This document shows positions 1-36,033 of a stretch of 64,000 bases of DNA, piece by piece; position 1 is the first letter of the stretch, and each line of letters opens with the position of its first letter. Made by a program: the position numbers and the translations under genes. The notes below the pieces were generated by a model. That model saw nothing but the letters and a program-made list of their open reading frames with translations. It searched no databases and was not told where the DNA came from. The stretch spans positions 203,771 to 267,770 of the forward strand of contig QPGO01000066.1 in the NCBI GenBank assembly GCA_008632985.1, written 5' to 3'. The DNA is from Psammoneis japonica (lineage: Eukaryota).

Positions 1-468
1 AATTTCCTTGCTGTTCTTTCCACTTTTTCAAACACCGTGCAGTGCCTCTTTTGTTGTGCAGCCTTGCAGAGCAAAGCATGATGCCAATTGCAAGACAAAA
101 CTGCCCTGTGTCACTCTCTGAATCTTTTCTCCTTCAGTGGCAGCTCATGCTCCTGGGTGCGCACTCTGGTTGGTTGCAGAGCAAACCACAAGCACCAAAC
201 CTCAAGATGCAGCTCACAATGTTGAAGGGCCCAGAGCCAGAGCTTTGACCAGAGAGTTGCAAAGGGTGGCCAGAATGAGCCACAAGCAAAACTTGCTCTT
301 TTGTTGGCTCATTGACATGCAGCGCAACATTGACAAAAGAAAGGATTGAAATTGCAACAGCTTTGGAGAGGCTTGCAGCTGCACATGAGTGCATTCCAGA
401 ATCAGTGACAATGCGCTCCAGCTCTGGGCACGACTCTGTGTGACAGCAAACTTCGTTGCACAAGAGTG

Positions 469-781
469 CAAGGTGGCACAGGTGCAAAAATGAGCCAGAC
501 CTCATGTGTGCAGAACTCAGTGTGTTTTCTGCACAAATCACCAAAGTCACCTTGCCAACTTCAATCCTCTCCAACAAGATGGAAACATGGACAACTCACA
601 TGATGATGACAAAGAGTTTGGAGTGCTTGTTTGGACTCCCCTTGACTTGTTTGTGGAGAAAAGCTGAATGTTTTCAAGCATTTATGAAGACAGTGCACAC
701 CAAGTCCAATCCAAAAGGTGCCAAAATTGCAACCTTGGAGCTTTGCAGAGCTGCACCAAATGACAAATGTGTGTGAACATG

Positions 782-814
<33 letters not shown>

Positions 815-1000
815 CAAACAAGTCAACAGGAGTGCAAGCAAGCAGCCCAACCAAGCACCACTTTGTTGTGTGAAATGTTCAAGTTCACATCATCTGGGAG
901 AGGGTTTGAGTTGGCAAAGTGACTTTGGAAATTTGTGCAGCAAACATGCCGAGTTCTGTGCATGTGGAATCTGGCCCATTTTTGTGCCCGTGCTGCCTTG
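469..1000. mobile_element. Degenerate foldback/MITE-like element with ~130-bp inverted arms (469-600 and ~870-1000)
   Basis: caaggtggcacaggtgcaaaaatgagccag... aligns to the reverse complement of ...ctggcccatttttgtgcccgtgctgccttg. Confidence 0.7.
785..812. repeat. (TC)n microsatellite
   Basis: Pure TC run. Confidence 0.95.
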
Positions 1001-1009
1001 ACCAACTGA

Positions 1010-1326
1010 AACACTTGTCTTGAACATCAAACAAATGACCAAGTTTGCAGTGCAGTGCACATTGTGTCTGTCCATGCTTGAAGTTTTTGAACACCCACCC
1101 ACCCCACACCTTTCTTAAATGACCAAGAGAGGTGCAGAAGAAAAACATTGACAGTTGTGGTTGAGCGGATCACCCAAAAATTGCACCACAAAATGGTGCA
1201 AAATTCCACCAAAAACATGCGGAAATGTGTGTGCATGACATGTGGCATGATCCCAAAAGTTGTCAATGTCACAGCTCAGCGGCACAAGGTCCCACCTGCA
1301 TCTGCTCCAGTGAGCTGGAATGTGTG
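1010..1326 (+). mobile_element. Decayed partial copy of the ~390-bp MITE at 62535-62924
   Basis: tgtcaatgtcacagctcagcggcacaaggtcccacct matches tgtcgatgtcacagttcagcagtgcgaggtcccacct; upstream blocks are collinear. Confidence 0.75.
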
Positions 1327-2664
1327 TAAAATGCTCGGGGCACAGACCACTGTCTCCCTCTCTGGCCTCCGATCTGTGCCGCACAATTGCACAGCCAAGA
1401 CGGCTGCTGCCCTCTGCCACTCTCTGACTCTTCTCTCCTCTGGTGGTGGCTGATGCTCCTGGCTGAGCACTGTGGTTGGTTGTGGCACAAGCCACAAGCA
1501 CCAGACCCAAGATGCCAGCTTCAAGCTTCGTTGTGAAAATCCAATGCACTCTTTGGGGAAAGAATTTCAAATGACAGGTGTCATCACATTCGATGAGATC
1601 TGCTCAGGTGATCAACAGCCACAGCCGCACAGACATGCAGCACGCACCACAAAATGGCTGAAACATCAAGGAAGAAGCACTGCAGGGCCCTGTCCAACAA
1701 GCAGACTGCTCTGCCAGATGAGTGTGCAGCCATGGGTGGGGATGTGGCACAAATCACATGGAAACAAATTTCCGTGGATCGAAACAAGAGTCGCCTCAGT
1801 TGACAGAGGGTGTTCAGAGGTGTTTGGAATGGGGGGCAACTTTTTCATTGGCCTTGCATTTGTCAACATTGATGGTGATGAAGTGACTGCCATTTTGCTG
1901 CACTTTGCTGTGCAATCATGACTGAAAACATTTCGATTTTTCAAAAATCCTGCTGTCACTTGTTTGTGGTTGTGGAGGGCCACTGCTGCTTTTGTGATGC
2001 CAACACTTGCCAACATCAAAAGCAGAGACTTTTTCATGTCTCTGATGATGCATCTGCCAAGTCAGCTGACTCTGCAGTCAGAAAAAAGTGAAGCTGTGCT
2101 TTGGTCCTGAATGACATGTTTGCAATTTTGGAGTGTCATTGCAGCCATTGTGACACCAAAAGTGACCAACATCAGTTGTAGAATCTCTCACATCTCCAAC
2201 AATGCATCTGCCACTGCAGCTGTCACATCAGCTGCAGAGAATGATTGACATCCTCTTTCTTGCTTTTCCTGCACTTCACTGTGTGACACAATCTGTGGAG
2301 TGCAAAGGCACACCCATTTCGCGGTGATGCTGAGGCAGGTCACAGGTCCCATTTTCCAACTGTGCTCAACTCTGCATTTTTGTCCTTTCCACCACAACAA
2401 CTGCCTGCTGGAGCCTTCCTCTTCAATTTCAAAGTCTGGGTCCTCATCATCGTTGCTCTCCTTGACATCCATTGTTGCTTCTTCCTTGCCTGCACAGGAG
2501 TGCTGTGCCAGCAACGGCTGTGGACTGTTGTGAGCAACACTGTGCATTTTAAAAGTGCAAACAGATGGTGTGCTTGGCATTCAAGCAAGTCATGACCTGG
2601 TCTTTTGGCAACAGCTTTCGGAGCCACACTTGCAGCTTTGGTTTCATCACTGTGACACTGTCCA

Positions 2665-2796
2665 CAGCAAAAGTTGGCATGCATTGATGCCACTTCCACA
2701 AGAGCACACCACTTGCTTCTTGACAGCAATGTCAAAGCTCAACTCAGCCTTGTCAAAAACATCCAGAAGCTCTTGTGTTGGTTTCAGTTTCAACCA
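2665..2796 (-). pseudogene. Fragment of a sulfurtransferase (rhodanese/MST C-terminal domain)
   Basis: LKPTQELLDVFDKAELSFDIAVKKQVVCSCGSGINACQLL resembles the CGSGVTAC active-site loop and its preceding helix. The rest of the gene is not recognisable. Confidence 0.55.
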
Positions 2797-3187
2797 AAAT
2801 TGTCCGCACGGATTCAACATGAGAAATTCCCTCTCATCTGCAACTTGCAATGTCATCTTCATGCCCACTGCATGAACAGGATCCCATGCTTGATGTGCAA
2901 TGGAATGGAGTCACCAAACAGCTCCAAGGCTTTTGCCCTCATGGCTCTTGTTGGTTCTGTCTCATGTCACCCAGCCCACCTTGATCCGCTCCTCCAAGAA
3001 GCCACCCTGCATGCATCAAAAATGAAACGATGCATTGTCGCTCATGGAGTGGAATGGAAATCATGTTTGTGGAGTAAAATTTGTCCCCTCCTTGCTGCAA
3101 ATGACAATCTGTGTGGTTCGTGGATGTCAATGAAGAGCTGGGGCAAATGCGAGACAACAAGGCACTTTTTCTTGCAGGAGAAACAAC

Positions 3188-3397
3188 TTGGGGGAAGTCT
3201 CCAGCCAGCTGCTGGCTGAAAAAAGTCTGATCATCAGCGCGTTTGGGGGTTTTGCAAGTGCAATTTTTGTGCATGCAAAAGAAGATGAGTCTGTCCAGCG
3301 TTCATCAAAACCCCCTGATGCACAGATTGACAGACTCTTTCAGCGCAATTTCTGCACAAAATCATTCAGCCAGCAGCTGGCTGGAGACTTCCCCCAA
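3188..3397. mobile_element. 210-bp MITE with a perfect 33-bp inverted repeat
   Basis: ttgggggaagtctccagccagctgctggctgaa (3188-3220) is the exact reverse complement of 3365-3397. Confidence 0.85.
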
Positions 3398-4330
3398 ACT
3401 GACATGGTCTGAATCAGGGCTTTCAAGCTCATCCATTGCCAAAACCACTCTGTGTGTGATTCTGGAAACAGCACAACAAGGGCGCTGGCATGGGCAAAAA
3501 AGGAACGTGCTGCATGATGAGGGTCGCAAGCCAATTCTGATTCAACCCACACGCGTTGTTGACAGCGCCACACACACTTCATGCACTCACCTCTTCCAGC
3601 ACAAACATTGTCAGCATTCTTGCTTTGATGTTGTGAGATGTTGTCATCCAGGCGGCTCAGCTCTGTCTCATGAAAGTGCCATTTGGGTGACGGCATGTTG
3701 CTTGGACAAGACATGAGGTCATTCTCAGACATTTCAAAGCTGCTCAATGAAGCTGCCGCCATGAGAGTCATGCTTCGGTGCTCCCTGCCTGATTCGATGA
3801 TGGCGGACATGATGGCATCAAAAGTGCAACTTTTCACGATGATCCTGAGGGAAGCATTTTTTGGTGCAAAACGACATGTGTGTTGGTCAGGTGCTGACTT
3901 TGCTCAATTTCTCCACCAAACCATTGCTCGAGATGGCCCCTCGGTGTGTTCCACCTGATTGTGTGATCGCGGACATTATGATGCTTTGAAGGGGCTGTCC
4001 AAAACAGTGATTCTGAGGGTGCGAAAGCGATTTGTGGCAAGAAACGGCAGGTTGATTTTTTGGTTGTCGCTCAGCGAAGGCTACGGAGTTGGAAGCTCGG
4101 ACTTGCGCGTTGTGACCGCACGTTGAGTCTTATGACATCCATGGTCCATTTGGGCAACGAGGTTGATTTCTTCTAAAAAAACATAAATAGCACCTGCGTG
4201 ATTTCTACTACGGCGTACCCACCCATAGCAGCGCGGATGTTGCTGCTGCCATCTGCCATCATCACCGCTGCTGGTTTGCTGTGTTGTCTCTATTGAGCCC
4301 ATAAGGTGTCATTCAGCCCACATTACAACC

Positions 4331-5275
4331 ATGACGACGTCTCCCGACAATAAACGTGCAAGGTTCGCTTGTTGCGGTGATGGCGAAAGCGCAGCACTCA
4401 AACTGGTCTGTGAGAGCGGCTTTTTGAACACCAAAACTCTGGGCCGTTTGCTCCTAATCACCAACAAACGCTTGACGCATGACATGTTTGGTAGTAATCC
4501 TCAAGACGTTTGGCGGTGCTTGTGTGCCAATGAATGGAGCTTGGATGACGTGCAGCTTGCCACCATTTCCACAGGCATGACCATGGAGGAAACTTTCCTC
4601 AAGCTTTTGGTGCCTTCTGTTGTGGGAATCAACTCGTGGGCGGGAGAAGAATTCTCGTTGCGCCCGCTGAGGTATTCTCCAGACGATTATCTGTTTGTTT
4701 TTAAGTTTGAGTCTACCTCAGATCCAGATGATGATCATACTTTTTATCACAAGGTTGTTCCCGGTAAAGAACTCTCACAGTTCTTCACCGCGGGCAAGGC
4801 GCAAATACTCTTTGATGAACCAATTGTAGAGTTTGAATCCAGTGAAGAATTCATTGACTTCTTTTGGACCGCACATGTGCAACTGCTTCGGATACCAGAT
4901 GGAAAGATTCTCAATGATCTTGCGCTTTTTGGCGCTCGAGATACATTGAACCCCAACGAACCGGAATTAGTCGGGAGGTCCCAATCGGATATTCCGATCC
5001 GTCGGACAAAGACGCTGAACACCGACTACGGGTTTCATCTCATGCGATCAGTCTATCCTGACAACATCATTGCATTTCAATTTGATGTGGATCTTGTGTA
5101 TCGAATATCAGCTGTCAACGATTCTCTGAACAAAGTTGGAGTGTGGGGTTTCGAGCTTGTCACGTTACTACAGGCAATAGATGATGCACCGGAGGTTATG
5201 GATTCACATTATTTGTTGGAGAGTAATGTCTCTTTTGCTCATTTTTTGGAAGCCCTGTCTGCTTGGGACTCGTGA
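4331..5275 (+). CDS. Hypothetical protein, 314 aa, possible F-box-like N-terminus
   Basis: Uninterrupted ATG-TGA ORF of normal composition. N-terminal FLNTKTLGRLL...VWRCLC pattern. Confidence 0.75.
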   Translation: MTTSPDNKRARFACCGDGESAALKLVCESGFLNTKTLGRLLLITNKRLTHDMFGSNPQDVWRCLCANEWSLDDVQLATISTGMTMEETFLKLLVPSVVGINSWAGEEFSLRPLRYSPDDYLFVFKFESTSDPDDDHTFYHKVVPGKELSQFFTAGKAQILFDEPIVEFESSEEFIDFFWTAHVQLLRIPDGKILNDLALFGARDTLNPNEPELVGRSQSDIPIRRTKTLNTDYGFHLMRSVYPDNIIAFQFDVDLVYRISAVNDSLNKVGVWGFELVTLLQAIDDAPEVMDSHYLLESNVSFAHFLEALSAWDS

Positions 5276-5770: not shown

Positions 5771-7404
5771 GGATCCAAGGCTCTTTACCAACTCAACACC
5801 ATTTCGGCTACGTGTGCCACAGATAATTTCCAGTTCGCTTTGAGACAGTCGAAGATGATTCTTGGAACCGCACGACCCAAGCTGGTGCTCCAGGTGATTG
5901 ATGAAAATTCCTCGTGTGACTGGAAACTTCGCATCATTTGGACAAACATTTTGATGCAACATTGGAGTGTCAACGTTTTCATCATCGCAACTGAATGATT
6001 GTCACAGATGAGTCAACTCATCATGTCATGCCCGCTTTGCAAAAGAGAGTATGCACTGTCAAATCAGCCACGGCAGCTTGTTTTGACATCTTCGGGGGAT
6101 CCGACCATTGCCATTGTTGATGCCAGGAACGACGAGAATGTCGTGTCCTCCAACCCTTTACCCTTTCATTTCTCGTGGGGCACTTTTGATTCGCAAACGG
6201 ATCCAAATCGTCAATGGTACTGTGACGCACAAGCGGCATTTCCTTCCAATAGCGAGTCTCTAGCGAAGCCCTGAAGCCGCCGCATAGAGCATCCAACATG
6301 ATAGTGCCATTTTCCGACTCATCCTTATAATTTTTTATCCAGTATTGTTCCGCCAAGAGAGAATTTTCAAGAGCTTTTCGTTTTCCTCTTTTCTCGTTTG
6401 TTGAGCTTTTATGCGCCTTGACGGTGTTCCGTATAATATCAATCGACGTTCAGCATACCATTACAAGCAAATCATTTTAAAATGCTCAAATCACCATTCT
6501 GTACTTGAATGGGATTGCGTAGACAACATTGCCCTTTCCTTGGAAGATACCCTCATGGTTGCCGAGCACTCGATATATTTACGGTATTCGTCTTTGTAAA
6601 ATGGGGTTTGATAACGAGCTCGAGACTTGCGCTTCGCGGTTGCACACCACTGGGAGTACGAATCAAAACTTTCGCTTCGACTGTTTCCGCATTCCCATTG
6701 ACGCCTTCTTGACAAGAGACGTGAGCCAACAGACGAGAAATCTGTTCAACTACATATTGACAATAGCATCATCCTTTGCAAATGCCGTTGATTTACTGCT
6801 ATCGTACCTCACACGAAACATGAACTCGCGAAATGCCAGCTGACAACCATCCATATATTCTAAATCAGATTTGGGACGCATCATGATGGTCTTTTTCCTC
6901 CTCGTTATATTGTTGCGCTACCTCCTATCCGGTTCAAGAGCCTCACGTTTGTGTTCCGCAAAATCATTGACACGGACAAGATCCTGGGCCTTTTTGGTGT
7001 GCGTCCAATATTTGCTGGTAAAAACGCTCATCCAGCCTCATGACCGTCCACACACATGGGAAGCGTCTTCACGAAACATATGGGAAGCGGAGTTTCGTCT
7101 TTGAAGTCGTTTCGATAGCACGTGTTACCGGAACCGGGCACTCGATATAGACAAACACCACGTCGTCGCAACTTTGTGGTCTTTTTAGAGGTACATGAAA
7201 AGAACCGTCTTGTACGTAAGGCGAGAAGGATCAGCGAGACTGGGCGCAGCGGGCGAGCGAACGAAGCCTTCATCATGGTGTCCGATAGATTGGTTGAATT
7301 CATTGTCACGTGTATGTACAGTAAAATAGATAGTGCATATGAACGTATATGGATACGAATAACAACATAGAACAATTTCGAAATACAACGGAAACTGTTG
7401 TACA

Positions 7405-8245
7405 TCCCTCGTGAACGAACCGCCGCTGTCGCAGCGAGCGACGAGCGATGATGCAAAAGCGGCGCTGGCAAGAGACATTGACGACAACAAGAGCAAGCCG
7501 CTGACGAGAAATGAATGATCTTCCAGCACTTGCTGTGTTTTTCTTTTTTCTTTTTCACGCCTTGCTGCAATTTGAAATTGCTTCAGAGGGCCCCACAGGG
7601 ATGCCGACGACGAAAGTGTGAGCCGATCGACTTTGAATCATCAAACTCATCACCGACGAATTTGCGCATTTTGCATTTTCTCAGCTGTTTGCTGTGGAGT
7701 CAATTTTGCACCGTTGTAGTTGACAAGATGGAGTGACTCCGTCAACCACAGTGTGCATCAGTGTCCACCTCGATTCCCTGACATGGAGAAGTGCAAGCCA
7801 TTGTGGACGTCTTGTGTTCTCGGATGCCGACAAGTGCTTGACCTCAAAGACCCACGTCACAAAGGCTCTGAGCACTGAATGGTCTGTTGTGGACCGAACG
7901 AGAATGAGATGAGCTGAATGCCGTGCACACCAGTTCAAGGGTGTCGTTGAAAGGGAGTGCCGACAGTGCACCATCGCCGCAGTCCGACGTTGTTTCCATT
8001 GTTTGCGGCAGATCCTGCACAGTGCAGCACAAGCAAAAAACCGGTCTGTCCTCTTCCGACCTGTCTGTCCTCTTGCAAGAGCAAACTGTGCAAAACCACT
8101 CTAAGAAGGGCTCCCCGTTGTTGCACATGCAAACCCTGTCTGCTGGCATCGGTCAGAAGGTCAACAGAGATCTTTGCGAAAACAGCGGGCTAAAAGAGTG
8201 TTGCATCATGGCACAATTGGGGGCCAAAAGCGGCACATCGCCATT
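7405..8245. other. TpA-depleted domain 2 (CpG largely retained)
   Basis: About three TA in ~840 bp while CG is common. Confidence 0.8.
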
Positions 8246-8743
8246 TTCTAAGAAAAATCTACCGTTTGAGAATTTACACAGATTTTCTATCATTAATTAT
8301 CCTCATTGATGGATGTTTTTACATGTCCATTTCCAATTCGAATGCGAGTAATAAGGCAAAACAACAACGAATGAGAGCTTATGGACCCGCATTATTCGAT
8401 ACGAGTGTGTATTATGGACTTGCCATTCTGCCCTTGCGAGAGATAATGGCTAAGCGATTGACGAAGGATGCAAAAAAAAACTGTGTAAATTTCTCGGTAT
8501 GTTGCCACGTAGAAATCTACTGACGACCGGTCTGTCCTCTTGGAACGAAAAAAGGCCCTTCTTGCGACAGTAACAATGGTGTTCAGAACCGTGAACCTGG
8601 CAAATACAGGCATAGGAGCACGTCAATTGACAATGTTAGAAGACGTAAGAAGCATTGCACAGTGAAAAGCTAATCGATTTTGGAAACAAAATCGACTTTT
8701 ACACAGATGCCAAAAGGCAGAGGACAGACCGGTTTTTTACTTG
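8030..8743. mobile_element. Tc1/mariner-type MITE (TA target duplication, ~25-bp TIR)
   Basis: Left end gCAcaagCaaaaaaccggtctgtcctct versus right end (reverse complement) gTAcaagTaaaaaaccggtctgtcctct. Internal partial TIR copy at ~8526. Confidence 0.85.
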
Positions 8744-9537
8744 TACGGGGCGCGGCAAGACGCATCCGCGATCGATTCGTTCCTGGATATGGAGTTACGA
8801 CTAGCACAATGTGAACTGTAAAAAACGTCCCGAACACCCATATCGCATCTTTTGTACATCGATATTTAACGATAACGTCTTTTAGCAAATAATTAAGGCA
8901 TTTTTCAGATGTAACCCATACAATTTGTACTCAAAATTTGATACTTGTAACACAATTAGAAGATTTTTAAAATGTTTCATATTCAAATTCATACTCAAAT
9001 TTTCATAACTTTTTCACTCCGACTGTTTCTAATCAATAATCAAGTTCGTATGTTTATTAAAAGACGTGGCCGGCGTTTCGGTCCATTTTGGCGGCTCGAC
9101 ATTTGAGTTTACTTAACACCGGACATTTCTATATGACTTCAGTGCGTAGAGCCATAAGTACGTAGACTGTTACAAATTCTACAGCAGGAGTCATGTGCAG
9201 TCATTTTACATTCCAATCATTCAGACATTCAATATATATTTAAATACAAAGTATACAGTTTGTAATGGTCTATTTTGCACATTGTGCTAGTCGTAGCCTC
9301 ATACCGCCGCGATCGATTAGAGGCATGGTTGAAGTTATTATTCTTTTGGTGAAGAACTTCCGTCAAGCAAAAGGAAGATGTCACCCCACACGTATGAGAC
9401 CGATGCAAAATCTCCGTTGCCTGACAACACGGCAAGACTAGGCGGATAGAGCAACGCACAAAAACGATTGCTTGTTGGTTGTTCAATCGTTGGTGTGTTT
9501 CAACAAGTGGATACATCGTACTCGTCGGGCAAGGACA

Positions 9538-12500
9538 ATGTTGTTTCGACATTTCCTGGTGTCGTTGTTGTTGTGTCGCCTTTGCCGAGGCGGCACCTTC
9601 TCGGACAAACGGCTGTTTCGGGCAGTTTGTTTGCGAGTCGTTGGGAAGGATTGCGACTCTGGTTCTCAAGATGGTGCGCCGTGGTACTGCGGTGCTTTCA
9701 AGGAAATGTGCGAGTTCAAGCAAGGAAAAGTCGACAGGAACGGTCTTGATCTGCGTTGCGGCACGTTGCTCAAGACGATGGAAGAAGGCGGCTTTGCAGC
9801 CGTCCTCCGCACCAAGGAAGAGTGTGAATCCTCAAGGAAGATTTGCCGTTGGAGCTCGGGTGGAGCAGCATGGCAACGTCTCGAATGCAAGATTGTTCTT
9901 GGTGGCGCTGAAGATGAGTTTCGTGGCGACCGCGGACGGACAAGAGGCTTGCGTCCAGGACAAAACTTCTTTTCCAGAGTTGGAAGCGGAAAGAAGGGAT
10001 CCAAAGCAAAGAGCAACAGAAAGAAAGGAAAAGGTGAGGGGAAAGGCAATGTTGACATGAAGCCGCGCCAATGCCATGGTTGGCGGAAGAAGCTCTGTGC
10101 CAACGGAAAATGCATCAATCACAAAAAGTGTTGCCCCGAGGACGCATCTTGCAAGCAAGGTGGGACGAGAAAACGTACAAGAGCGCCACGTCCCGCGCCC
10201 CGACCTGGACCAACCAAGAAGCCAGCAGGTGGTAAAGGATTTCCGATTGCCTGTCAAGGCTATGTCGGATGCAGTGACGGGAGCCGTTCTAAACGAGCCA
10301 TTTGCCGCCGTCAAGGAAATAGCGTCCGCACGCTATGCATTTCTAAAAGCCTTGCTTTGCGTCGCCTTGTAGTGCCTGGTTCGGACGGCACTTATTGCGG
10401 CTGCTGCACAACCGAGCAAGAACCTAACCGCCGTCCATCCTATTGTGCGAGGTACGACGGGATCGTTGATGCCTCTTTTATCAAGGATGGACTTGTTCCC
10501 GGGCTGTCTACAGTTGATGAAGATTCGACTTTGGACGTTGCGGGCTCAAGCTATAAGATTGCAGCTACTGGATCGGTTGCCAATGCAGGCCTTGTAATTC
10601 TCTCCAAAGTTTCGCATCTTATTGATTCAGTAGACTGCGTATTCTCAGCACAGGGACAGAGCAAGGTTACCATTATCCTGAAGGCTGGATTGCTCTTTGG
10701 GTCCGTGAAGGAACTGTTTCCTCAAAAAGCTGTGTTGGTGGTCGAGGGTGATGTATTTGGCTCGTGCTTGTTAGATTCGGTACCCGAAAACCAGGTCGGT
10801 ATCGACATTACTCGACTTGACGAGTTTTCTGATGATGGTTACTTAATTATCAAGTCGGTTCAGGGTAGCGATAGGAAAGTAGATGTTTCGGGCGTTGCCA
10901 CGGATTTCTTCTCTCTATTCAAGTCACTAAGCGCCAGGCTCACGCGTTCTGTTATAGAAGCTGGGTCGCAACGTGCTTTAGTCGAATCCTGTTTGGGATT
11001 TGGTATCGAGGGTCCCGAGACAGCTGTCGAAAACGAAGACGCCCCATTTTCGTTCATGTTCGAGGGTCAGGTGTGCGGCAATGTCGGCGTTGATTTCTTC
11101 CTCGATGCCTCTCTTGGCGATATCGACCTTGAACTTAAACTTTCATTTGGGTACAAGGTTCAGGCCAAAGCTGAAGTGGGTTTTGAACGCCAATTCGAAA
11201 CTTTTGAGCCCGTTCAACGGAAGATTCCAACACTTAACTTCGGCAGTATCCCAATCATCCTACGACTTCGCGGGGTTCCACTCAAACTCTTTCTCAAGTT
11301 GAGCGCAGAGAAATTTGTTCTTGAAGCCGATCAGACGGCGTCTATTTTTTCCTTGGCTGAATTCAGCTTAGAGCAGCCTGTCGCTGAAATAACACTGAAA
11401 GTTACAGGTAGCTTACTCGGCGTTGGGTTGCGCGCCGCGGTAGATAGCAGCGTCGCCCCCATGCAGAGCGAAGGCGAGGCAAGTGCTGTAATCCCTGCTT
11501 TAAATGCTGACTACAAAGTCTCGAGCTTTGCTGGGCTTCTTCCTGAGATCATAGGGGCAGCGATTTCAAAACGATTCTCGTTCCTAGTTTCTACAAAAAC
11601 GGGCATGCATATGGAGGGAAAGACCCAAGTGTCACAATACGATGGGAAACAGCTTAATCCAAATGAATTGCCTACCGAAGTTGGTCCATGTGACGAGAAC
11701 CATGATTTTGAATTGACGGTGTCTGCGGGGTCGGGAGGCATCAAGTTTGGATATTACATTGATCTGACCCCTCCAGGGGGGAACCTTGATCCAATCTACC
11801 TTCAAGACTCAGTCGAAATCACGGGAATAAATGATCAGGACTTGTTGCTTGTATGTGATCATTTGGAGGATCAGCCTTCGCTCGAGCCTAGTGTTGAACC
11901 CTCCGATCCGCCGTCATTGAGCCCTTCAGATCAGCCATCATCATACTCTTCCATGTGGCCTTCGGATCAACCTTCTCTGGAACCTAGTGGCGAACCTTCC
12001 GATCAGCCATCATTGAGCCTTTCCGATCAGCCATCGTCAGACCCTTCCATACGACCTTCGGATCAACCTTCTTTGGAACCTAGCGGTGAGCCCTCTGATC
12101 CGACGTCATCGAGTCCTTCCACGCAACCATCAAGTTGCATGAATGATGATGATGATTGTGATGGGGTTCCCGACGCCTTTGACCTATGCCCCGGGGTTGA
12201 CGACATCAATGACCCTTCATGTGTGATCATCACCCAATCGGTTTTCGCTCTGGACAGGTTCAAGACAGATGTATCCCTCGATCAGGAATCGGAGGCTGTA
12301 AAGATTGATTTCATTGTAAAAGAGGAGGGAATGATGAAGTCCTCCTTACGCATGGTTTATGATCCTCAAACAGCAACAGTGCAAGAAATCCATCTTGTCG
12401 TACGGAAAGATGATTCTGAGAGCATACTTGCCACAATAGAAGCAACCAGCGAGGGGGAGAGAAAGAAAAGAACCCTTCATCAGTCTCTGGAAGTACGTTC

Positions 12501-15500
12501 AGGGGGGGCTTCTTATTCTCGCCTGCTGAACGAGGGTTGTTGTGACTTTGGTTCTCTCACCAGATGTGAAGCCGCTTTAGGCGCCATGGCCGGTTACGCT
12601 TGCAGCAAGATATTAACAGAAATTGTTTGTCTTCCTTTTGGTCTTGGAAGAACAGTGTGCAAACAGATAGCAGGAAGATACATGGAGGGCGTGTGTGGGC
12701 TAGGTCTTACCGGTGACGCGGTGGGAAACTTCTTAAAGAGAGGATGCGAAACAGGTCTTGGCTGTTCAGCGGACCCTTGCTGCGGCTCGGAAGATCCTTG
12801 TTGTGGTTCAGACGACGAATGCTGCGGCTCCGATGACCCTTGTTGCGGCTCTGATGACCCTTGTTGCGGCTCGGAAGACGAATGCTGCGGCAATAACGAC
12901 CCTTGTTGTGGTTCAGACGACGAATGCTGCGGCTCTGATGACCCTTGTTGTGGTTCAGACGACGAATGCTGCGGCTCCGATGACCCTTGTTGCGGCAATG
13001 ACGACCCTTGTTGTGGTTCAGAAGACGGATGCTGCGGCTCGGCTTCTTGTGAAGATGATGACAAAGCGCGTTCAGATGGCGACCCGCACATCCTTACGTT
13101 TGACAATTTGGCTTATTCGTGCCAGGGAGAAGGCGAGTTTACCTTGGTGAAGTCGTTGGATTCTGGTCTTCTTGTGCAGACGCGCTTCAAGAAGTCAAAG
13201 TTCAATTCAAGGGTGAGCGTCACGCGCGGATTCGCTGCGCGGGTGAGCGAGAATTCTCCAATAGTACAACTAGCTATTCCCGAAATTGACGGCACTCCGA
13301 TCTTGTACATCGACTCTGTTCTCCACGACACGCTTGTTCCGTACGACGATGAGCATGTCTCCTACACGCCAGCAAGTGGTGGTTCCAGGTTCACCGTGCA
13401 ATTCAAGGAATGGAGGTTGACTGTTGTTGGTCGGATGTCTGGAGATTTCGTTCTGAACGTGGAAGTGTCCATCTCGAAAAACTTCCGCGCAGAACGCATC
13501 GTAGGTTTAATGGGTAGCAACGATGATGACTCAACTAATGACTGGATGACATCGGATGGAACCGTTTTCCGGTGCCAGAAGACCCAGAAGGAGAGGGCTT
13601 ATCTCAATATGAATACTGCGTCACGAACTGGTGTATCCTAAACGAAGACGAGTCTTTGTTCTTCTATGATCAAGATCTTGACTTTTCCTACTACTTTGGG
13701 TGCGATCAGCCATACGAAGGGGACGTAGATCTTTCTGGAGTGAGCGATGAGGTTAGGGATCTTTGTGGCATTGATCAAGAATGCTTGATTGATGGGGTGG
13801 TATTGGGTCTAGACATTGCCCAGAGTACTCTCGAGGGTAAGGCTTCTGCATCACTCCCTCCACATGGGTTCACGATGTCAACTACAATGTTACGTTTACG
13901 GTGAACATCAGTACAGTTCCTCCTATTGAAACAGGCTCCATTGACGCTTATTCGATTTATCACTTGGGTGATCGAACTGTATTTCTTGGAACAGCCAGCA
14001 AGACAACACAGGAGGGCAAGGTGTTTGTCATTACGACATCTCTACGATCGCAGATTGCCGGAGAAAGCTTATCGTTTCAAGCTGTACCGCAAATGAACGG
14101 GGTTGACGTTCCATCGTCACGGCACGTTTTCACTCGATTTAATGGGGCGATTTGCTTTTCTCGAGTATCAGGAATCGGATTGACGAATCTTTTTGCCGAC
14201 CTATCTAATCTTCCCATAGGCGTGAGCTTGTGGGTTTACGACATAGAGGAGGTTTTTCTAGTACAGCGGAATGCCGGAAACAGTACTCAGCTTCTCAGTG
14301 TCCCTGCTACAAAAATTTTTGTCAATGTCATTGATACAAGTGCTGATATTTGGAAACTGGTGGACTGCTTCGCTGGCACTTGTCAATTGATGGATTTCAC
14401 TGCAATGTTGGAGGTGGATGTGTCGAGGCTACCCAATTTGTACGAATTGGAGCTCCTGACAGAATCCGGTAGCAGGTTTCGCAGGGATCTAAATGCTGGC
14501 GGATCTATCGCGTCCTACAAAATTCTTGCCCTACCAAACGTGACCGTTGCCCTACCGAGGGCAGGGGTGCCGGTCCTGTGCGTCCATATTTTGTTCGGGA
14601 CCTCGACTGTTCTTCTGGGTCGTGTCGCGTCGACGACGTGACGAACGACTTGTACGTTAACTTGACTGGACTCGAGGATAATGACTTGGAGATTCGATTG
14701 TATGATTCCGAGCTTGGTGGTGGGCTTCGGTTCATTCGCGACGTTATGAATGAAACGGATTTTACAACCGCCGTCTTGCCATTTGTTTACGACGTTGAAG
14801 TTAGAGATAATTCGGATGGGTTGGCGATCCTCGGAATCAGTGGTGTTGACTGCTCCGGGAGCTCGTGCGCTATTGGCCCATTCAATGCGGTGTTGGAGGT
14901 GGATGTGTCTAAGTTACCGAATCTATACAAAGTGGAGCTCCTGAATGAAGCTGATGGGCGTAGCTTTCGAATCGATCTTGATGCTGGTGGAACAGTCGCG
15001 TCCTACAAAATTCTTACCCTACCAAATGTGACCGTTGCCCTAACCGAGGGCAAGGGGGCTGGGCCAGTGCGTCCGTATTCTGTACGAGACCTTGACTGTT
15101 CTTCTGGGTCGTGTCGCGTCGACGACGTGACGAACGACTTGTACGTTAACTTGACTGGACTCGAGGATAATGACTTGGAGATTCGATTGTATGATTCCGA
15201 GCTTGGTGGTGGGCTTCGGTTCATTCGCGACGTTATGAATGAAACGGATTTTACAACCGCCGTCTTGCCATTTGTTTACGACGTTGAAGTTAGAGATAAT
15301 TCGGATGGGTTGGCGATCCTTGGAACCAGTGGTGTTGACTGCTCCGGGAGCTCGTGCGCTATTGGCCCATTCAATGCGGTGTTGGAGGTGGATGTGTCTA
15401 AGTTACCGAATCTGTACAAAGTGGAGCTCCTGAATGAAGCTGATGGGCGTAGCTTTCGAATCGATCTTAATGCTGGTGGAACAATCGCGTCCTACAAAAT

Positions 15501-16335: not shown

Positions 16336-16369
16336 TTGGTGTTTAGGTATTTTGCGAGACGAGATTAGT

Positions 16370-18910
16370 GCAATTTCATGTTGAATCACATGTGAGCGGC
16401 CGCTCTTCATGGCGCACAATTCCTGGAATTTCCATGCTGTGTTGCGTGTGACTGTGTGCTCAATGATGCAATGCCGATGGCGGTGAACACCCCTCATGCT
16501 GGCCACACACCCCAGGCCATGGCACCACCCACTCACACTGTCAGAGGAGGAGCTCTGCCATTGCAGCAACAAGAACCCTCCTGCCAGCACGTGCTGCGAT
16601 TGGCACCAAGAGCAAGGGCCACAGCCTGCAGCTCCATTCCTGCCTGTGCAGCTACCACAGGAGCTGTGAATCCAAGAGTGCCCCTGCACCACTGCTCTGT
16701 CTCATCTCCCTCTCATCAGAGTTGTTCTGTGAAGATGACTGGGGCTTCTCAAAAAGAAGCAAGTGAAATGGCATGGTTCAGGACTTCCTTGAGGCACCCC
16801 ACACACAAGCAGGTGGCAGCAGCTGCTTTTCTTGACAATGAAAGCTCGGCTCTGCTGCTGGCGGCCATCATTGACGACAATGTGAATGGGCCACACGCCC
16901 TCAACGTGGGGTGGACAGCTTGTGCTTTTTGGCACTCTTTTTCCTGAGTTGGGGGCCGGCCTGCCAGCTTTTTTCCACTTGGCACCAAGCAGCACCTGGG
17001 CCCCAATCAGCATTGGGGTCATCAAGCAGTGGTTGCCAATGCCTCCAATGCCAAAGACGTGCTTGAGTGTGCAAGAAGTTGTGGCAGAGTCTCCATGCTC
17101 TCTCTCTCTCCTCTTTTCTTTGTCAGGCTGCTTCTGCCCAGCAGTGATTTTGCAGCAGCAGCTGTGCACACACAAAGGTGTGTGGAGATTGCAACAACTT
17201 TTTCAGAACACATCAGCTCCACATCCCATTCAGTCATGAGGCCTCATGTGCAGTGTGTGTTGTGTGAGCTGCAGGCTTTCAAGCAAGCAGGGTGTGGCAC
17301 AGAGAAAAGAAAACACAGGGAGGTTCTGGTCATGTTTCAAGGAGCATCCCCATGGGTTGATGACATTCAATGGCTGAATGAGATGCAAAAATTACTCTAA
17401 ATTGTTTCTGGCAACTTTGCAACAGTTGCGCGCACACAAGGGAGCTGGCACCATGGTGTGTTGTGAGTTGTGAGCATGAGCGTCAACGGGGACAGCATGC
17501 ATGATGGTTCGCACGTGATTTTTGGAATTTCAATGTGACCAATGTGGCTGGACAGGGGTCTGGTTTGAATGATGCAAATCTTTTGCACCAAGTCATCATC
17601 CTCATTGATGAGGACATCCATGCTTTTTCACGCAAGTTTTTCACATTTGTTGTGTCATTGACACACAAGTTGTTGTTGTTGTGAGGCTGCTGCCAATCAC
17701 TCTCTCTTGATCATGTTTTGTTGCAGCAGCATTCCTCGACATGCGGCCAGGCCTCTTTGCTTGAGCAGCAGTGCCACTTCTCATTTCAACAATGACAAAT
17801 GGTTTTTGCTCAAGAGCTTTTCTTCTTCAGAAGAACCCCGCGAAAGCATGCCGTGCGATGTCTTGATTGTCGGTTGTGGCCCCACCTGTCTTGCTGCATC
17901 GATTTGTCTCAAACAACTCTGTTTGCAACATGAACAAGATTTGAGTGTTTGTTTGATTAAAAAGGGATCCAAAATTGGCTCTCACATTTTATCTGGAAAT
18001 GTGCTTGATCCCAAGGCCTTGCCAGAATTGTTCCCAGAAGAAAAGGAAACGTGGGTTCAAGATGACTGCCAGTGATCAACCTGCTGCTCAGACTTCATGT
18101 GTCATTTGCAGAGCACAGCAAAGGGAATCAGCATCAATTCAAATGATGTGCAATGGCCCATTCACATGGCTCAATGGACTTGAATGCTGCGCGCATGTGT
18201 GCACACATGGGCTGTGCAAAAATGTGTGTTGAGCTTGACACGCCCAAGCTGCAAGCTGTTCTTTGTCACACAAATGTCCAATTTGAAGTTCAAAACTTGG
18301 CAATCTGACTGTTGTGAAGGGTCCAAGTCAGCACCTCTTGTGCCCACCCAGTGCAAAAAATTCTGAAGCAGATTGCTTGTTGCTGATGAGCATTTTGTTT
18401 GGCAGCTCTTGCAGAGCTGCAAAAATGAGCTCTGAAAAGGAGATTGTGATTTGTCTTGGTCAAAGCACTGCTGTGAGTGGCTGCAGGTGTTTTGGGGACA
18501 GCTCTTGTGATGGTGGAAGACCTCAGAGTTTGGCAAGAGTCCAGCTCAGCTGTGTTTTCCTTCTCGCATCATCTGAAGGCTGCCCAGATGCAGTGCACTT
18601 TTTGACCATTTCAAGAAAAAGAGTGGAGGCAGGTTTGCATTTGCCACCATGCAGGAGATGACTGCACTCATTGCCTGCTTGACAAGTGTCTGCAGTTTTG
18701 GCAACAGAGTGGCGTTTGGAGCCAAAGCAGGCTGTTGGCACTCTCTTTGCTCCGCTCGGCTGTGTGGCTGTGTGGCAGAAGAGAGAGGACTGCTCCTGAG
18801 GGCAAGAGTTGGGTACAGGTGAACATGGTGTGGTCAGCTGGGCATTGGAACAAAGATTCGGACATGTCGCAACAGCTGTTGTCTTGCTGTGTTGTGAGCG
18901 TGCTTGAACA
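16370..18910. other. TpA-depleted domain 3
   Basis: About six TA in 2.5 kb; begins ~35 bp after the VWD gene stop. Confidence 0.93.
17713..18063 (+). pseudogene. ETFDH: 5' partial duplicate of ETF-ubiquinone oxidoreductase (with upstream region from ~17510)
   Basis: Aligns to 19235-19579. GGGPAG is changed to GCGPTC and the copy is truncated after ETWVQD. Confidence 0.97.
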
Positions 18911-22851: not shown

Positions 22852-23396
22852 GGTGGTTAAAATGTTGAACGTCGTTCCGGTTTTGGAGTTTTGGAATGTT
22901 TTTGCGCCGCGAATGCACGCAGCGCTACTGTGCGCCGCTGCGGCCGCAGGGCACAGACAAACGGACCGCGAGTCACGAAACGCCAGCGCAGAAGTGCCGG
23001 CAACTTTGAACTACGACAAGAGATCCATCGTTCTTGTCACTCCACAATTGTCAGAATTGTCCATGATCTGCTCCATCCCGCGACATCTTTTGCCCTCATC
23101 CCAGCAGTCCATCACAGAGTGGCACGCCATCATGGCTTTCTCATCTGGTTGTTTCGTTTTGCTTTGCCATTTCTTCAACAGCACTGGTTCTCAGCTCCTC
23201 AATCAGCTCAAAGGCCTCAATTTGTCATCATGTTTGTTGAAAACTGCCATTGGTTTTTTTTTTTTTCGAAGACTTCGATGAATCAGCACACATGTGCACC
23301 CTGCTGCCTTTGGAGACAATGTGGAGACATCATTGCCCTGTGTGTGATGATGGATCTGACTGAGTGTGTTGCATCATCCACTGCTCCAGGGAAGTT

Positions 23397-24352
23397 CAGT
23401 GACCGGATCTGCAGATGACAGCCAGACCTGGATGGCCAAGCAGATCTCCTTGAGATTTGTCTCTCACTTTCTTTCTGACTGGTGCTGTTCATCACTGTCC
23501 CAGCACATGTTGGATTGTGCAAGCAGAACCTTGTCTGTTGTGACAGCTGACCGAGTCATGAGTCGTGAGTTGTGTGTGCCAGCGATGACACATCAGACGT
23601 GACTCACAGTCACACACCCAGTGGACAGACATTTCATCACTGTCCTGGCATGCATTGGATTGTGCCAGCAGACCCTTGTCTGTCAGGTCATGAACACCAT
23701 CATGCTGTCCTCCACATCATCAGATGGCTGAGGCTTTGTCTGGGATGGGTCCAACACATTTGATGTCGTTGTTGTCACTGTGTTTGGTTCAATGATCTTC
23801 TCAATGAAGCACTGGCTTAAGATCTTGGTTGCATCATGGCAGAAACCAGGAGGTGTAAATTTGTCCACAATGATTGATGCATCCACAAGAGCACTGGAAA
23901 AGTGGTTGTCCAGGCAAGTGTGGGTGTCTCTGTGAGTGGAGTTGGGTCCAAATTTGAGGTTTGTGGACTTTGTCTTTGTCAAATCAATGGCTTTGGTTGA
24001 CTTGTTGGCCATGGTTGGGCACGCAAAATTTCTGCGCAAAGCTCTGGCATGTGATCCATGATGGTCCTGTTGGTGCAGTTGGTGGGAGAAAAATTGGTGG
24101 TGAGATGGAGATGGCATTTTCTCTTGACAAAAATGGGGCTCTGTGGCACAAATTCTGGTTTGTGTGTTCTGATGATGGCGGAACAGTGCGATGGTGCTCA
24201 TGACCTGACAGACAAGGGTCTGTTGGCACAATCCAATGCATGCCAGGACAGTGATGATGACACAGTGCTGGTTGGAAAGAAAGTGAGAGACTGATGTCAG
24301 GGAGATCTGCTTGGCCATCTGGGTCTGGCCATCCTCCACAGATCCAGCACAC
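23397..24352. repeat. Three copies of a degenerate repeat (23397-23540 +, 23635-23724 +, 24168-24352 -)
   Basis: Shared gatggccaagcagatctcc and catcactgtcctggcatgcattggattgtgc blocks in direct and inverted orientation. Confidence 0.85.
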
Positions 24353-24523
24353 TGACAGCATTGGAAATGATGGTTGGACAATGCATGGATTTGTGTGCTT
24401 TGCAGCAGCAGCAGCATTTGGCCACTGATGGTGCACTGAAATTCCAAAAACCATGCACCCATCATGTGTGACAACTCCTCCCATCTTTGCTCAAGCTCGC
24501 AACATGTGAGACATGTCAAGCAC

Positions 24524-24922
24524 CAATGCATTCTAACTCAGGCAGGGCTGCTTGTGACATTGGGCCCACACAACAATTTTGTGCACAAGCTCCACAGCAA
24601 ATGCATCAGGAGATGATTGTGCAAATGATTGCCAACAGAAAAAGAGGCAAGTTTGTGATCACATCTCCTCTTTCATTCTTGGAGAACATCACTTCTGCTT
24701 TGCCCATGTGTGTGCTTCAGACATTGAAGGCTGCACCCAGTTGGTTTTTCCTCTTGAATTTTGGTGTGACAAAAAGCCTTTGGCTTCACAAAACTGGGAT
24801 CATGAAACAAGTTTGCAGAAGATGACATGTGCAATTGCACGTGTGTGACATGTGGCACATGACAAAAAACTCTGACATCACAGTTCAGCAGCACAAGGTC
24901 CCACCTGGAGCTGGGGTGCATC
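24524..24922 (+). mobile_element. Decayed full-length copy of the ~390-bp MITE at 62535-62924
   Basis: Both ends are homologous (tgtgacattgggccc; cacagttcagcag..aggtcccacct) with similar spacing. Confidence 0.8.
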
Positions 24923-25677
24923 TGCTGTTGTGCCGAAGTTGCTGGAGACAACTTGGAGTGCTTCGCACATCTTGTTCTGTCTTGTTGAATTTTCCACTCT
25001 CTGTGACAGCACAGGAACAAAACTCCCTCCACTCTCTTGCTTTCAACAGCCCAGCCTGTTTCCAAAAAAGCCTGCACATGACTTTCTCAGCTCTGTGTGG
25101 GCTCAACCAAATTTTGCCCAGGATGCATCATTGTTTGTGCCAGCCCCTGTGTGCTCGAAACAAGCACTTTTGTCAAGAGAAGCACATGCCTTTGAAGACT
25201 TTGAGTGCATCACAGTGGAATCAGCAAATCAACTGCTGCAAAGAGCTGCAGTTGGACACAAGATTCTTGCCAAGCTCTGGGTTTTTTCCTCCACTGCAAG
25301 AAGCATTCCCACAATTCCCAGTCAACAATGACACTTTGAAGGGCTGCCAAGGCACAAGCCCCTCTCCATGGTGCTGGAAACTGCCAGGTGTTCCTCCCTG
25401 TCTTGAACCAAGCTCTGAGTCGATTGCTGCTCACACATGGTGCATTGCCAGATGTGATTGCCGCAGTCTTCTGTGCCGTGCAGGCACAAGGAACACCGAC
25501 TTGTATCCTTCACAGAAGTCAGATGGCCAAGCATTGGACATTCAACTTGGGGGTGTTTGTGGCCATCGAGATTCTAGAAGCGCAACTAGAATGAATCCCA
25601 CACACTCCCTCTACTCGTAGCTCGAGCATCATTGATGCTACTAATTATATGATCCCTAGTTATTTCCCGATAATATA

Positions 25678-26913
25678 TTACGTCGACATCGTTGTGTTTT
25701 CTTCTGCTTCGGCAAGTTTCTTCATATCGGCATGTGCTTGCAACGTCAATCCTTGTGTCAATTCCAAAGCTTTGGCCTTTCCAACTCGTTTTGCAAACGA
25801 ATCGAGCCAACCATAAATTTCAGTATGGCTACCAATGACTTTGAACGTATTCAAGCGGTGCTGAAAGTCGTTTGCCGACTTGCGTCCCATAAAGACTTGT
25901 GCTGATCCCATGTAGTGTTGGACTCGAAACATGGCTTCGGAATACGGTGCATTTGGGCCATTGACGCACATTACCGGACTAACACGGTGAGGTGAGCTCA
26001 CGCCGCCTCCATTGTACCGTGACGCGTCAATCATTGGTTTGCCCGGATACAGGTTTTCCAATTCTTGGTGCTTAATATATCGAAGTGTATAAAACAAATC
26101 AACATCAAATCCGTCCGGAGCATACGTTTCGTTGCTGTCTTCGGGTGAAAACAAGACACGAGGAAAAACAACGCATGGCTTTCGAAAATGCCAATATGGA
26201 TCGGTTTGATTCAGCTCATTGGCAATGTAATGAGCCGCCGTTCTTTCTCCAATCCGGGGCACTCTTGTTCGTGGGTGTGTCTTGTTTTCGATCTCTTGTT
26301 GAAATTTCAAATTGCATTCTCTCCTGGATGCATCATCCTTATCAACCGCACACCGCCACGGTTCACCGTCGTCATCATGATAATAGTTGAAAACAAGATA
26401 CTCGTCCGTATCCACCAAGAGCGTCCACGTTCGGTTCTGCCGTTTCAGTGAGTTGAGACAATGATGAATAAATGCCTTTTGACGTCCCCGGTGAAGCTCG
26501 TGGCGTTGGAGGTTGGTCGCATTGTCATTCAGAAACGCTCCCTTTGGCAGGTAATCCTCGTCACGCCACATTTCAATCGTGAAATTTGATAGCGTCCGAA
26601 ACTCCTTCAGAATCGGTTCTGGCGAGATTTTGCTGTATGGATCGACCGCAATAATCAAATGACGGAGTGGCAAGACTTCATAATGATATGCTAGCCATTC
26701 TGGCAAGATGCGATTATCATCCTTGACAATAAGACACGCCGAAAAGGTAAAAGGAAAATCATTGTCAATTTCCGTTTTGACTTTGGGCGGAAGAAAGATT
26801 GCTTCCTCTAGTGACTTTGGGAGAAAGCTGTTGAAGGCCAAATGAAAGTTTCGAGTAAGACCGAGGACCGCGATTATGGCTACAACGAGCAAGCTCTTTG
26901 AAAAGGGAGTCAT
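25678..26913 (-). CDS. Glycosyltransferase-like type II membrane protein (GT-A fold, GT2/GT92-like), paralog 1
   Basis: N-terminal hydrophobic anchor; SACLIVKDDNRILPEWLAYH; DxD motif VDTDEY; C-terminal VQHY. Confidence 0.88.
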   Translation of the reverse strand: MTPFSKSLLVVAIIAVLGLTRNFHLAFNSFLPKSLEEAIFLPPKVKTEIDNDFPFTFSACLIVKDDNRILPEWLAYHYEVLPLRHLIIAVDPYSKISPEPILKEFRTLSNFTIEMWRDEDYLPKGAFLNDNATNLQRHELHRGRQKAFIHHCLNSLKRQNRTWTLLVDTDEYLVFNYYHDDDGEPWRCAVDKDDASRRECNLKFQQEIENKTHPRTRVPRIGERTAAHYIANELNQTDPYWHFRKPCVVFPRVLFSPEDSNETYAPDGFDVDLFYTLRYIKHQELENLYPGKPMIDASRYNGGGVSSPHRVSPVMCVNGPNAPYSEAMFRVQHYMGSAQVFMGRKSANDFQHRLNTFKVIGSHTEIYGWLDSFAKRVGKAKALELTQGLTLQAHADMKKLAEAEENTTMST

Positions 26914-27493
26914 GGTCGTTTTTTCACAATGAAAGCAACAACAACAGGTGCACTGAGTCCATTTCCTCCTTGATCGTGTAGCGAAAGCTCAACGGACCAA
27001 AATGAAACGGATGGAAAAAGTGGCCGGGGAAATATTTATCGATCATACAGATATAAGGATTTATGTATAGAGTCATTCATTGCAATGAAGTGCGATATAT
27101 GTAGCCGTAATGTGTCATTAAGTCGATATTCAGGCTGTATATAAATTTTAATACAACATCCACGACAGTCTTTTGTAAAAAGGCAACGTATGTACGACTA
27201 CATAAGGAAGTCTTTCTGACTCATAATTGCTAGGAATGTCATCTAGCTTCTTTCCTAAGTACAATGACGCAGAGCTTTCTTGATGAAGTTGTATCTTTCC
27301 GCTTGCGTGCCACGTGCAACCTTCGTGATAGATGGTGACAACATATCTCAACATGCATACCGTGTATTCAAACATCGGAAGCCACGTAGACTCTGTAGGG
27401 AATTATGCCGTACGGTAGGTAGGTGAGGCACGCACTTGTTCCCGTTTTGTTGTTGCTGCGGGGCGTGAAGTTGTTGTTGCCGTTGTATTCACC

Positions 27494-34500: not shown

Positions 34501-35590
34501 ACCGCTTGTGTGTCATCGCATGCAACCAAATGATCCTCCAGGACAGTGGAAAATCTGTTTGCCGACTGCGCTTGTGCCCGACATCTTGCGGTGGTGTCAT
34601 CTCGTCCTTGGCCATGCCGGAAGCCAGCGCATGCGTGAAACAATCCAGACTCATTGTTGTCATCCTGGGTTGCGTTGCATGTGTGATGAATGCTCTTGTG
34701 CTGATTGCCAACGGACAAAACTTTGGGTCCTGGCCATGGAGAGTTGCCCAAACGAGAAGCTCCATTGACTCCCTGGTCGGAAGTGGTGGTTGACCTCATT
34801 GGCCCGTGGAAAATCAAAGCACCGAATGGAGAGATTGAGTTTCGGGCGTTGACCTGCATTGATCCTGTCTCCAATCTTGTTGAACTGTTGAGAATTGAGA
34901 ACAAAACTGCTCGACATGTTGCTGACCAATTCGAAAACTGCTGGCTTGCATGCTGTCCCAGACCGAGTCGATGCATCCACGATGACGGCAGCGAGTTCAC
35001 CGGGTGTGAGTTTCAGATGCCATTGCAACAAGCCAGAATTGATGATGTGCCGACTGCTTCATACAACCCTCAAGCCAACACTGTTTGTGAACGAATGCAC
35101 CAGACTGTCGGCAATGTGTTGCGCACGCTCATTGCTTCTAATCCACCTCAAAACCTTCAGGGTGCAGCTGGCCTCGTGGACGATGCTTTGGCAACTGCAA
35201 TGCATGCAACTCGCTGTGCTGTTTCCCGTTCTTTACAGACATCACCAGGTGCCATGGTGTTCGGACGTGACATGATCTTAGATGTCCCGGCACTGGCGGA
35301 TTTGTTGATGATTCAAGGCCATCACCAGATGCTGATCAACGACAACTTGCGACGAGCCAATGCCAAGAGAAGATCCTGCGATTGTCAAGTGGGTGATCAA
35401 GTTCTAATCAAGTCGGTTGTGGCACGCTCTCGGTTCGTCGAGCTCCTCATGTGGTTGAGCGCCTCAACATTCGGCGCCTGATTCCTTTTCGCGGTTGATC
35501 AGGGGGTTTTCTTCCCAACACCTGGGTTTCCTCCTGCTGTTGTCTTTACTTTTGGTTTTGGTCCTTGGTTTTTGGCCCTTTGCATGATCC
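28600..35590. other. TpA-depleted domain 5
   Basis: TA nearly absent except inside the 32699-33858 insertion. Confidence 0.93.
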
Positions 35591-35810: not shown

Positions 35811-36033
35811 AATCTCTTGGAGAATGACCGACAAATTTTCGAAATTGAACGGAAACTCGGAACCGCGTTTGTTTTGGTTGTTGGTGTTGGGGGTTAGTTG
35901 GCATGCGTGCTGTTCACTGTGTGCTCTATTGCTCATTGCTTACCTCACGCCATTGAATGAAACGAAAACGCATGAGACAAAAACAAACTACACAGAAAGT
36001 GGCAGCTTGAAAGAGACACTAATCAAGAAGAGA

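Follow-up and report, generated by a model that had tools for sequence, protein, structure and literature searches.

The locus described here raises the question of where and when its TA steps were lost: in a tract of unique DNA, in the small transposon that lies against it, or across both. The window, by which we mean the whole 64,000-nucleotide stretch of Psammoneis japonica DNA that was analysed, contains a non-autonomous inverted-repeat transposon (MITE) directly beside a tract almost free of TA. A preliminary description held that a mutational domain with a sharp edge near position 8245 had struck the left end of this MITE in place, after its insertion. We favor another arrangement, with a probability of roughly 0.6: the MITE lies at a TA beside an erased patch of unique DNA, the TA poverty of its left third was already there, and the patch has its edge at the MITE tip.

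The erased patch is the following feature.

7402..8029, no strand assigned: TA-erased tract of single-copy flank DNA, 628 bp, delimited by dinucleotide counts and contig depth

The tract contains one TA, for 37.0 expected from its composition. CA and TG number 54 and 64, against expectations of 38.2 and 40.1 (118 against 78.3 when combined), an excess that matches the TA deficit. CG is untouched (40; 41.4 expected), and AT numbers 31 (37.0 expected). In 100-bp bins, CA and TG are both raised along the whole tract. Since both are in excess, both strands have been changed. A model of break resection was considered and rejected, because no CA-versus-TG strand switch occurs along the tract. The left edge was placed at 7403 (support 7403-7454), with 13 TA in 7302-7401 and none in the next 300 bases, and the right edge lies between the converted site at 8028 and the TA at 8102, the first that survives. 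Loss confined to TpA, gain of CpA and TpG, involvement of both strands and distinct limits, the marks of a TpA-loss signature, are thus all present.

To learn how often this DNA occurs in the genome, contigs from three public runs (X1, X2 and X3) of a single sample of the same organism were placed on positions 7300-9400 at a likeness of at least 80%; X3 contributed no contig. Over the flank (7300-8009) lies one contig, which spans 7300-8058 at a depth of 59.6 and has one other letter, at 7829; no other contig shows at least 80% likeness there. Therefore, the flank is single copy. The same contig has C at 8028 and 8034, as the window does. No paralogue of the tract was found in the 64-kb window by blastn or six-frame tblastn, Pfam gave no match for the five flank ORFs tested, and none of the 15 stop-to-stop ORFs of at least 40 aa in the tract is protein-like. 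The tract may be of old, decayed foreign origin.

The transposon to the right of the tract comprises the following parts.

8030..8743, plus strand: the MITE, 714 bp, delimited by 27-nt terminal inverted repeats (TIRs), contig depth and family limits
8030..8056, plus strand: left TIR, with C at 8034, from a repeat search and arm-against-arm comparison
8717..8743, minus strand: right TIR, with TA at 8738-8739, from the same two comparisons
8028..8029, no strand assigned: left target-site duplication, reading CA, the partner of the TA at 8744-8745
8744..8745, no strand assigned: right target-site duplication, reading TA, from the end comparison
8038..8078, plus strand: two tandem subterminal copies of a repeat core (8038-8059 and 8057-8078), from a direct-repeat search
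8524..8545, plus strand: third, internal copy of the repeat core, from the same search, which pairs with the right end as an inverted repeat

The element has TIRs, many copies with common ends, and a small size without a transposase gene, which are the characters of a MITE. The likeness between family members ends at 8030 and at 8743/8744, as judged from the loose ends of contigs. Summed contig depth, which does not equal copy number, is 850-5118 over the MITE against 59.6 in the flank (14 to 86 times). On 7300-9400 there are 300 X1 contigs, and all but one of those described fall on two repeated elements, of which the MITE is one. No Pfam match was obtained for the two ORFs longer than 100 aa that overlap the MITE (7908-8309 and 8194-8523). 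No further copy lies in the 64-kb window, and no transposase partner was identified. Contigs from other copies show internal joints (8122>8503, 8380>8520 and 8388>8506); these are internal-deletion derivatives. It is possible that the internal repeat core at 8524-8545 and the right end together make up a short form of the element.

When the repeat core was searched for in public contig collections, one match was found in the metagenome collection, one in the genome collection and none in the viral collection, and no family copy was obtained. The two matches (L001, 1001-1019; L002, 1001-1022) are lone exact stretches of 19-22 nt in bacterial-type contigs and were taken as chance. One of the two contigs belongs to a Lachnospiraceae MAG, and by our own estimate about 0.3 chance matches would be expected for the longer pattern.

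Tc1/mariner (Stowaway-like) MITEs have short TIRs, a 2-bp TA duplication and a length below 1 kb, and they are non-coding. The present element resembles them in its short TIRs, its size below 1 kb, its lack of coding capacity, its presence in many contigs and its internal-deletion derivatives. It differs in that its repeat core recurs as subterminal direct repeats, and its duplication reads TA on the right but CA on the left.

The two ends were compared letter by letter. Positions 8027-8054 and the reverse complement of 8719-8746 are identical at 26 of 28 positions, the mismatches being 8028 and 8034 (C versus T at each), and the next mismatch follows at 8055 (T versus G). Accordingly, the 27-nt TIRs (8030-8056 and the reverse complement of 8717-8743) differ at two positions, 8034 and 8055, and an inverted-repeat search returned the end pair as 29 nt at 93%. 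The 28 bases of the right end contain two TA steps, and the left tip has CA at both of them. The preliminary description had noted just this pair of differences over 28 bp, CA on the left and TA on the right, with the target duplication included, and the end comparison confirms it. For two random substitutions, the probability of one transition in each of the two TA steps is about 0.001. Position 8091, which a repeated internal motif had suggested as a third TA-to-CA site, was dropped because the C form of this motif is also found in the TA-rich right part of the element (around 8655-8663). Beyond the 27-29 nt of the ends, the two arms are too diverged to be aligned or used for polarising changes.

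The copies of a target-site duplication are identical at the start, and position 8028 now gives CA where the right copy gives TA. At least one conversion is therefore later than the insertion. The claim of change after insertion thus stands for 8028, though not for the left third up to 8248, which is treated below. A patch that wholly pre-dates the MITE was also considered. The element would then have inserted where the erased tract gives way, on its right, to the first TA, and the C at 8028 would be an unrelated point mutation. With both repeated elements removed, the insertion TA is indeed the first TA after a TA-free run of 310 bp (the next TA steps come 44 and about 60 bp after it), and merely one or two in-place changes would be left to explain. 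However, the difference between the duplications is the exact signature change, at a TA and on the side that faces the tract, and the two-site pattern would arise by chance with the probability of about 0.001 given above. We consider a wholly older patch unlikely.

The interior of the MITE divides into two parts.

8030..8248, plus strand: TA-poor, GC-richer left third, with 2 TA and a GC content of 0.51, against 0.40 in the rest
8249..8743, plus strand: TA-normal remainder, with 28 TA and an observed/expected ratio (o/e) of 0.64

The 219 bp of the left third would be expected to hold 12.8 TA from base composition, and the two that it has are at 8102 and 8191. The remaining 495 bp would be expected to hold 43.6, and the o/e there matches the local background of 0.64-0.71. 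As a share of TA, CA and TG together, TA makes up 2/41 in the left third and 28/96 in the remainder (Fisher p = 0.0013). A change point fitted to composition alone falls at 8249 (support 8183-8249), and the alternative edges at 8102 and 8030 are worse by 3.6 and 7.8 log-likelihood units, respectively. The shares and the change point together establish the contrast in composition as it had been described, with TA scarce up to about 8245 and abundant after it, and show that it is not due to chance.

This contrast speaks for the view that a post-insertion patch ran from 7402 to about 8245 and converted some 8-10 TA of the left third in place. In addition to the change point at 8249 and the skewed shares, the part from 8102 to 8248 has a TA o/e of 0.24 and a CA+TG o/e of 1.49, the TA-free run is continuous with the erased flank, and 8028 and 8034 are both CA. 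The continuity of a signature-bearing left third with the erased flank is what in-place mutation predicts, and it counts against the reading that we prefer. Conversely, TA survives at 8102 and 8191, inside the supposed patch, where the flank kept a single TA in 628 bp, out of roughly 24-37. The letters of other copies weigh further against it.

Family letters were read from contig majorities over 7300-9400. One X1 contig with a depth of 252.6, about four times that of the flank, matches 8199-8501 except for a single other letter and two insertions, one of them of 20 nt. Over 8199-8248 this contig is letter-identical to the window, with 12 CA/TG sites and no TA, and it then continues into the TA-rich part. 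Because it spans the change from TA-poor to TA-rich DNA at 8249, that change did not arise at this locus. Among the 40 of 253 variant places that are listed, which judging from the rows shown are ranked by share down to about 68%, the majority differs from the window within 8062-8248 at eight (8062, 8107, 8108, 8113, 8123, 8177, 8190 and 8230), and the family version has TA at none of them. One of these eight, 8113, is a private C of the window copy, where 98% of the family depth has T in a TC context. Since this private change is among the places listed, private TA conversions would have been listed as well. Position 8113 is itself a T-to-C change outside the TpA rule. A TA-bearing minority could nevertheless sit below the listing share if most copies were hypermutated, some to the CA form and others to the TG form.

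The C at 8034 also appears not to be private to this copy, judging from contig letters. The end of the flank contig, 8058, lies exactly 31 letters beyond 8028; for a graph of 31-mers, such an end implies that the 30-mer 8029-8058, which includes C8034, is present at another locus behind a different letter. Furthermore, another contig has C at the site that matches 8034 in another copy. That C8034 is common to other loci adds to the case against in-place conversion as far as 8245. On this evidence, such conversion is contradicted for 8199-8248 and unsupported, though conceivable, for 8059-8198, and we regard it as rather improbable. The central claim of the preliminary description, a left end mutated in place with an edge at about 8245, is therefore not upheld by the contig that shares 8199-8501, nor by the listed majority differences, none of which is of the TA type. 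As far as contigs can tell, the family itself has a TA-poor left third and asymmetric TIRs, the finding that the description had named in advance as contrary to it.

The TA-poor third would thus have come in with the copy, either as an intrinsic property of the family or as a scar from an ancestor copy. In the second case, the ancestor would have been half-hypermutated elsewhere and remained mobile, and its descendants would have received from it the TA-poor third and a CAAGC tip. In favor of a scar, the mutational signature of the left third goes beyond low TA alone, and the letters there are common to other copies. However, TA should then appear at the diagnostic sites in the remaining subfamilies, to which 68-98% of the depth belongs there, and none is listed. 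The shift in GC content from 0.40 to 0.51 is also larger than about ten conversions would yield. We consider an inherited scar quite improbable.

The letters beside other copies are less clear. At the target site, one copy has TA after it, and the consensus of contig loose ends at the ends of other copies is CA and TG, with an agreement of only 0.5. These letters hint that many copies lie in erased DNA.

A separate discrepancy concerns 8315-8340. Nearly all contig depth has a 20-base insertion after 8340, an extra T after 8315 and G for C at 8322; this applies to all of the depth in X2 and to 252.6 of 322.2 in X1, where the remaining depth is one divergent contig. The exact letters that the window has at 8315-8340 are absent from the X1 and X2 contigs, the one of depth 252.6 included, which tells against the reading that we prefer. 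Either a fault in the assembly or a difference between strains may account for the discrepancy.

The direction of change was considered as well. If a RIP-like C-to-T process had created TA in the right two thirds, the left end would be original. Fungal RIP does yield TpA from CpA, and the right part is AT-richer. In contrast, the o/e of 0.64 in 8249-8743 equals the host-gene background (0.5-0.7) and is not raised, the transposon domains of the window are depleted in TA (o/e 0.00-0.08) and not enriched, and elements that insert at TA require TA on both sides. A reversed direction is scarcely credible.

The wider window gives further context. Its host genes (ETF-QO, MATH-BTB, kinesin and five GT2-like ORFs) have a TA o/e of 0.5-0.7. 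The window also contains kilobase domains with a TA o/e of 0.00-0.08 and a CA/TG o/e of 1.5-2.0, some of which are CpG-depleted too, and one TA-depleted domain contains remnants of a Ty3/gypsy RT, RNase H and integrase. In total, TA-poor tracts occupy 24,927 of the 64,000 bases. One class of them has CpG depletion (o/e 0.11-0.25), for example 1-3976, 16367-18813, 23013-25503 and 37653-42350, and another has normal CpG (0.8-1.07), for example 7402-8101, 30125-31715 and 33856-35061. The existence of two CpG classes suggests that CpG decay either follows TA erasure or proceeds separately from it.

A weak Glyco_tranf_2_4 match was obtained for each of five ORFs of 428-513 aa (25678-26988, 35779-37320, 46000-47307, 55767-57053 and 57624-58913), which are paralogues arrayed at dispersed positions in DNA of normal TA content.

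To the right of the MITE, at a distance of 42 bp, lies a second element that is also present in many contigs.

8788..9303, no strand assigned: second inverted-repeat element, with 26-nt arms at 88% and intact TA on both sides

It has TA at 8788 and 9302, a summed depth of 249-3557 and a TA o/e of 0.89. The same 12-base word flanks it on both sides (8766-8777 and 9307-9318), at unequal distances from its ends.

A second TA-free run, 9520-10175, has normal CpG and one TA where 35.8 would be expected. Within it lie the start codon region and the initial ~640 bases of a long ORF (9538-13641), which begins like a signal peptide and has a VWD domain farther downstream. The excess of CA and TG in this run is smaller than the TA deficit, and coding composition and hypermutation are indistinguishable there. 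In a Tyr-to-Cys/His test, residues 1-230 of the ORF had no homologue among proteins of 751-2393 residues. We also considered whether a single older erased domain, 7402-10175, had been split by the two insertions. This was rejected, since the single-copy DNA at 9359-9519 retains 5 TA.

These observations can be arranged into an order of events. We propose that a cut-and-paste, gene-less TIR transposon, now at 8030-8743, inserted at a TA directly to the right of 7402-8029. TpA-to-CpA/TpG hypermutation would have stripped the patch of all TA but one, on both strands, and spared CpG. The right end of the patch would lie at the left tip of the MITE, within 8029-8101. The in-place conversions would comprise the left duplication (8028) and perhaps also a TA within the TIR, six bases farther in (8034). 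At a distance of 714 bp, the right duplication would have been beyond the patch and so stayed intact. The TA-poor left third and its switch at about 8249 would already have been present in the incoming copy. The patch may have formed after the insertion, or may be older and have been hit again afterward, and its extent was presumably set by chromosomal position or chromatin state.

That the process acted on DNA follows from two of its targets, the unique flank and the target duplication, neither of which has an RNA stage. This part of the preliminary description is borne out, and the joint excess of CA and TG agrees with it. Editing of RNA by an ADAR-type enzyme before retrotransposition, against which the description had argued, is likewise disfavored: both strands are changed, and the affected sequences include a unique flank and a cut-and-paste duplication. 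ADAR would require passage through RNA and changes on the transcript strand only, and here CA and TG are both in excess.

The proposal that targeting follows position and not element identity stands on different ground from that originally offered. The supposed edge inside the MITE does not carry it. Conversely, the single-copy tract is erased while its repeated neighbor keeps background TA in its right two thirds, and targeting is therefore not by element identity. We can extend this, tentatively and at less than even odds, to a TpA eraser that works on single-copy DNA in sub-kilobase patches set by position or chromatin, spares the adjoining MITE and strikes again after insertion. As one part of that joint and similarly doubtful reading, the patch here would measure 627-700 bp, about four nucleosome lengths by our own reckoning, with edges sharp to one TA spacing. 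If this were true, the aiming would depend neither on repetition nor on foreignness nor on element identity, unlike in RIP, and would go beyond the proposal of the Bigelowiella preprint discussed below. The patch at 7402-8029 is, in any case, a compact site at which to search for a chromatin or methylation boundary. The locus also carries a caution: where a transposon end next to erased DNA is poor in TA, the poverty may be intrinsic or inherited, and a claim of in-place mutation needs the other copies of the family.

Two known systems invite comparison. RIP, in Neurospora and other ascomycetes, changes C to T at CpA and leaves an excess of TpA in duplicated DNA. It ruins mobile DNA in local blocks and can leak into adjacent unique DNA. 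The process described here is similar in being a dinucleotide-specific transition mutator that acts in local blocks. However, RIP makes TpA and the present process removes it, so that TA is depleted where RIP would leave an excess. Moreover, a MITE found in many contigs is spared here and its single-copy flank is hit. With the repeat spared and the unique flank hit, duplication is apparently not the trigger. An erased unique tract of 0.63 kb with a spared repeat adjoining it thus argues against RIP-like sensing of repeats.

The closer likeness is to Bigelowiella natans, in which integrated DNA of giant viruses and virophages undergoes TpA-specific hypermutation over regions of 25-186 kb, according to a recent preprint (Mettrop et al., bioRxiv 10.64898/2026.01.13.699255). 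As described there, mutation-accumulation lines gained A:T-to-G:C changes in two integrated viral regions, and at no dinucleotide other than TpA. Adenine deamination in DNA was proposed for the process, and RIP is named as a comparison in the Discussion (bioRxiv 10.64898/2026.01.13.699255). By analogy with this proposal, adenine deamination in DNA may be the chemistry at the present locus. A search of full-text literature for TpA hypermutation found the Bigelowiella preprint alone and nothing on diatoms, and the word "diatom" is absent from the preprint. Knowledge of TpA-directed hypermutation of DNA thus comes from one preprint of 2026, which deals with an alga that is not related to this organism.

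The two systems agree in several respects: the change is restricted to TpA, gives TpG or CpA depending on the strand, is local, combines loss of TpA with gain of CpA and TpG, and takes place in DNA. They differ in lineage and in target. The tract here is 0.63-0.70 kb of single-copy DNA for which no likeness to viruses or transposons was found, and the regions reported in the preprint are 25-186 kb of viral origin. The kind of evidence also differs, the signature here being read from sequence composition and the process in B. natans from mutation-accumulation lines. Tract 7402-8029 is a small instance, in another lineage and in unique DNA, of a hypermutation that has been described once.
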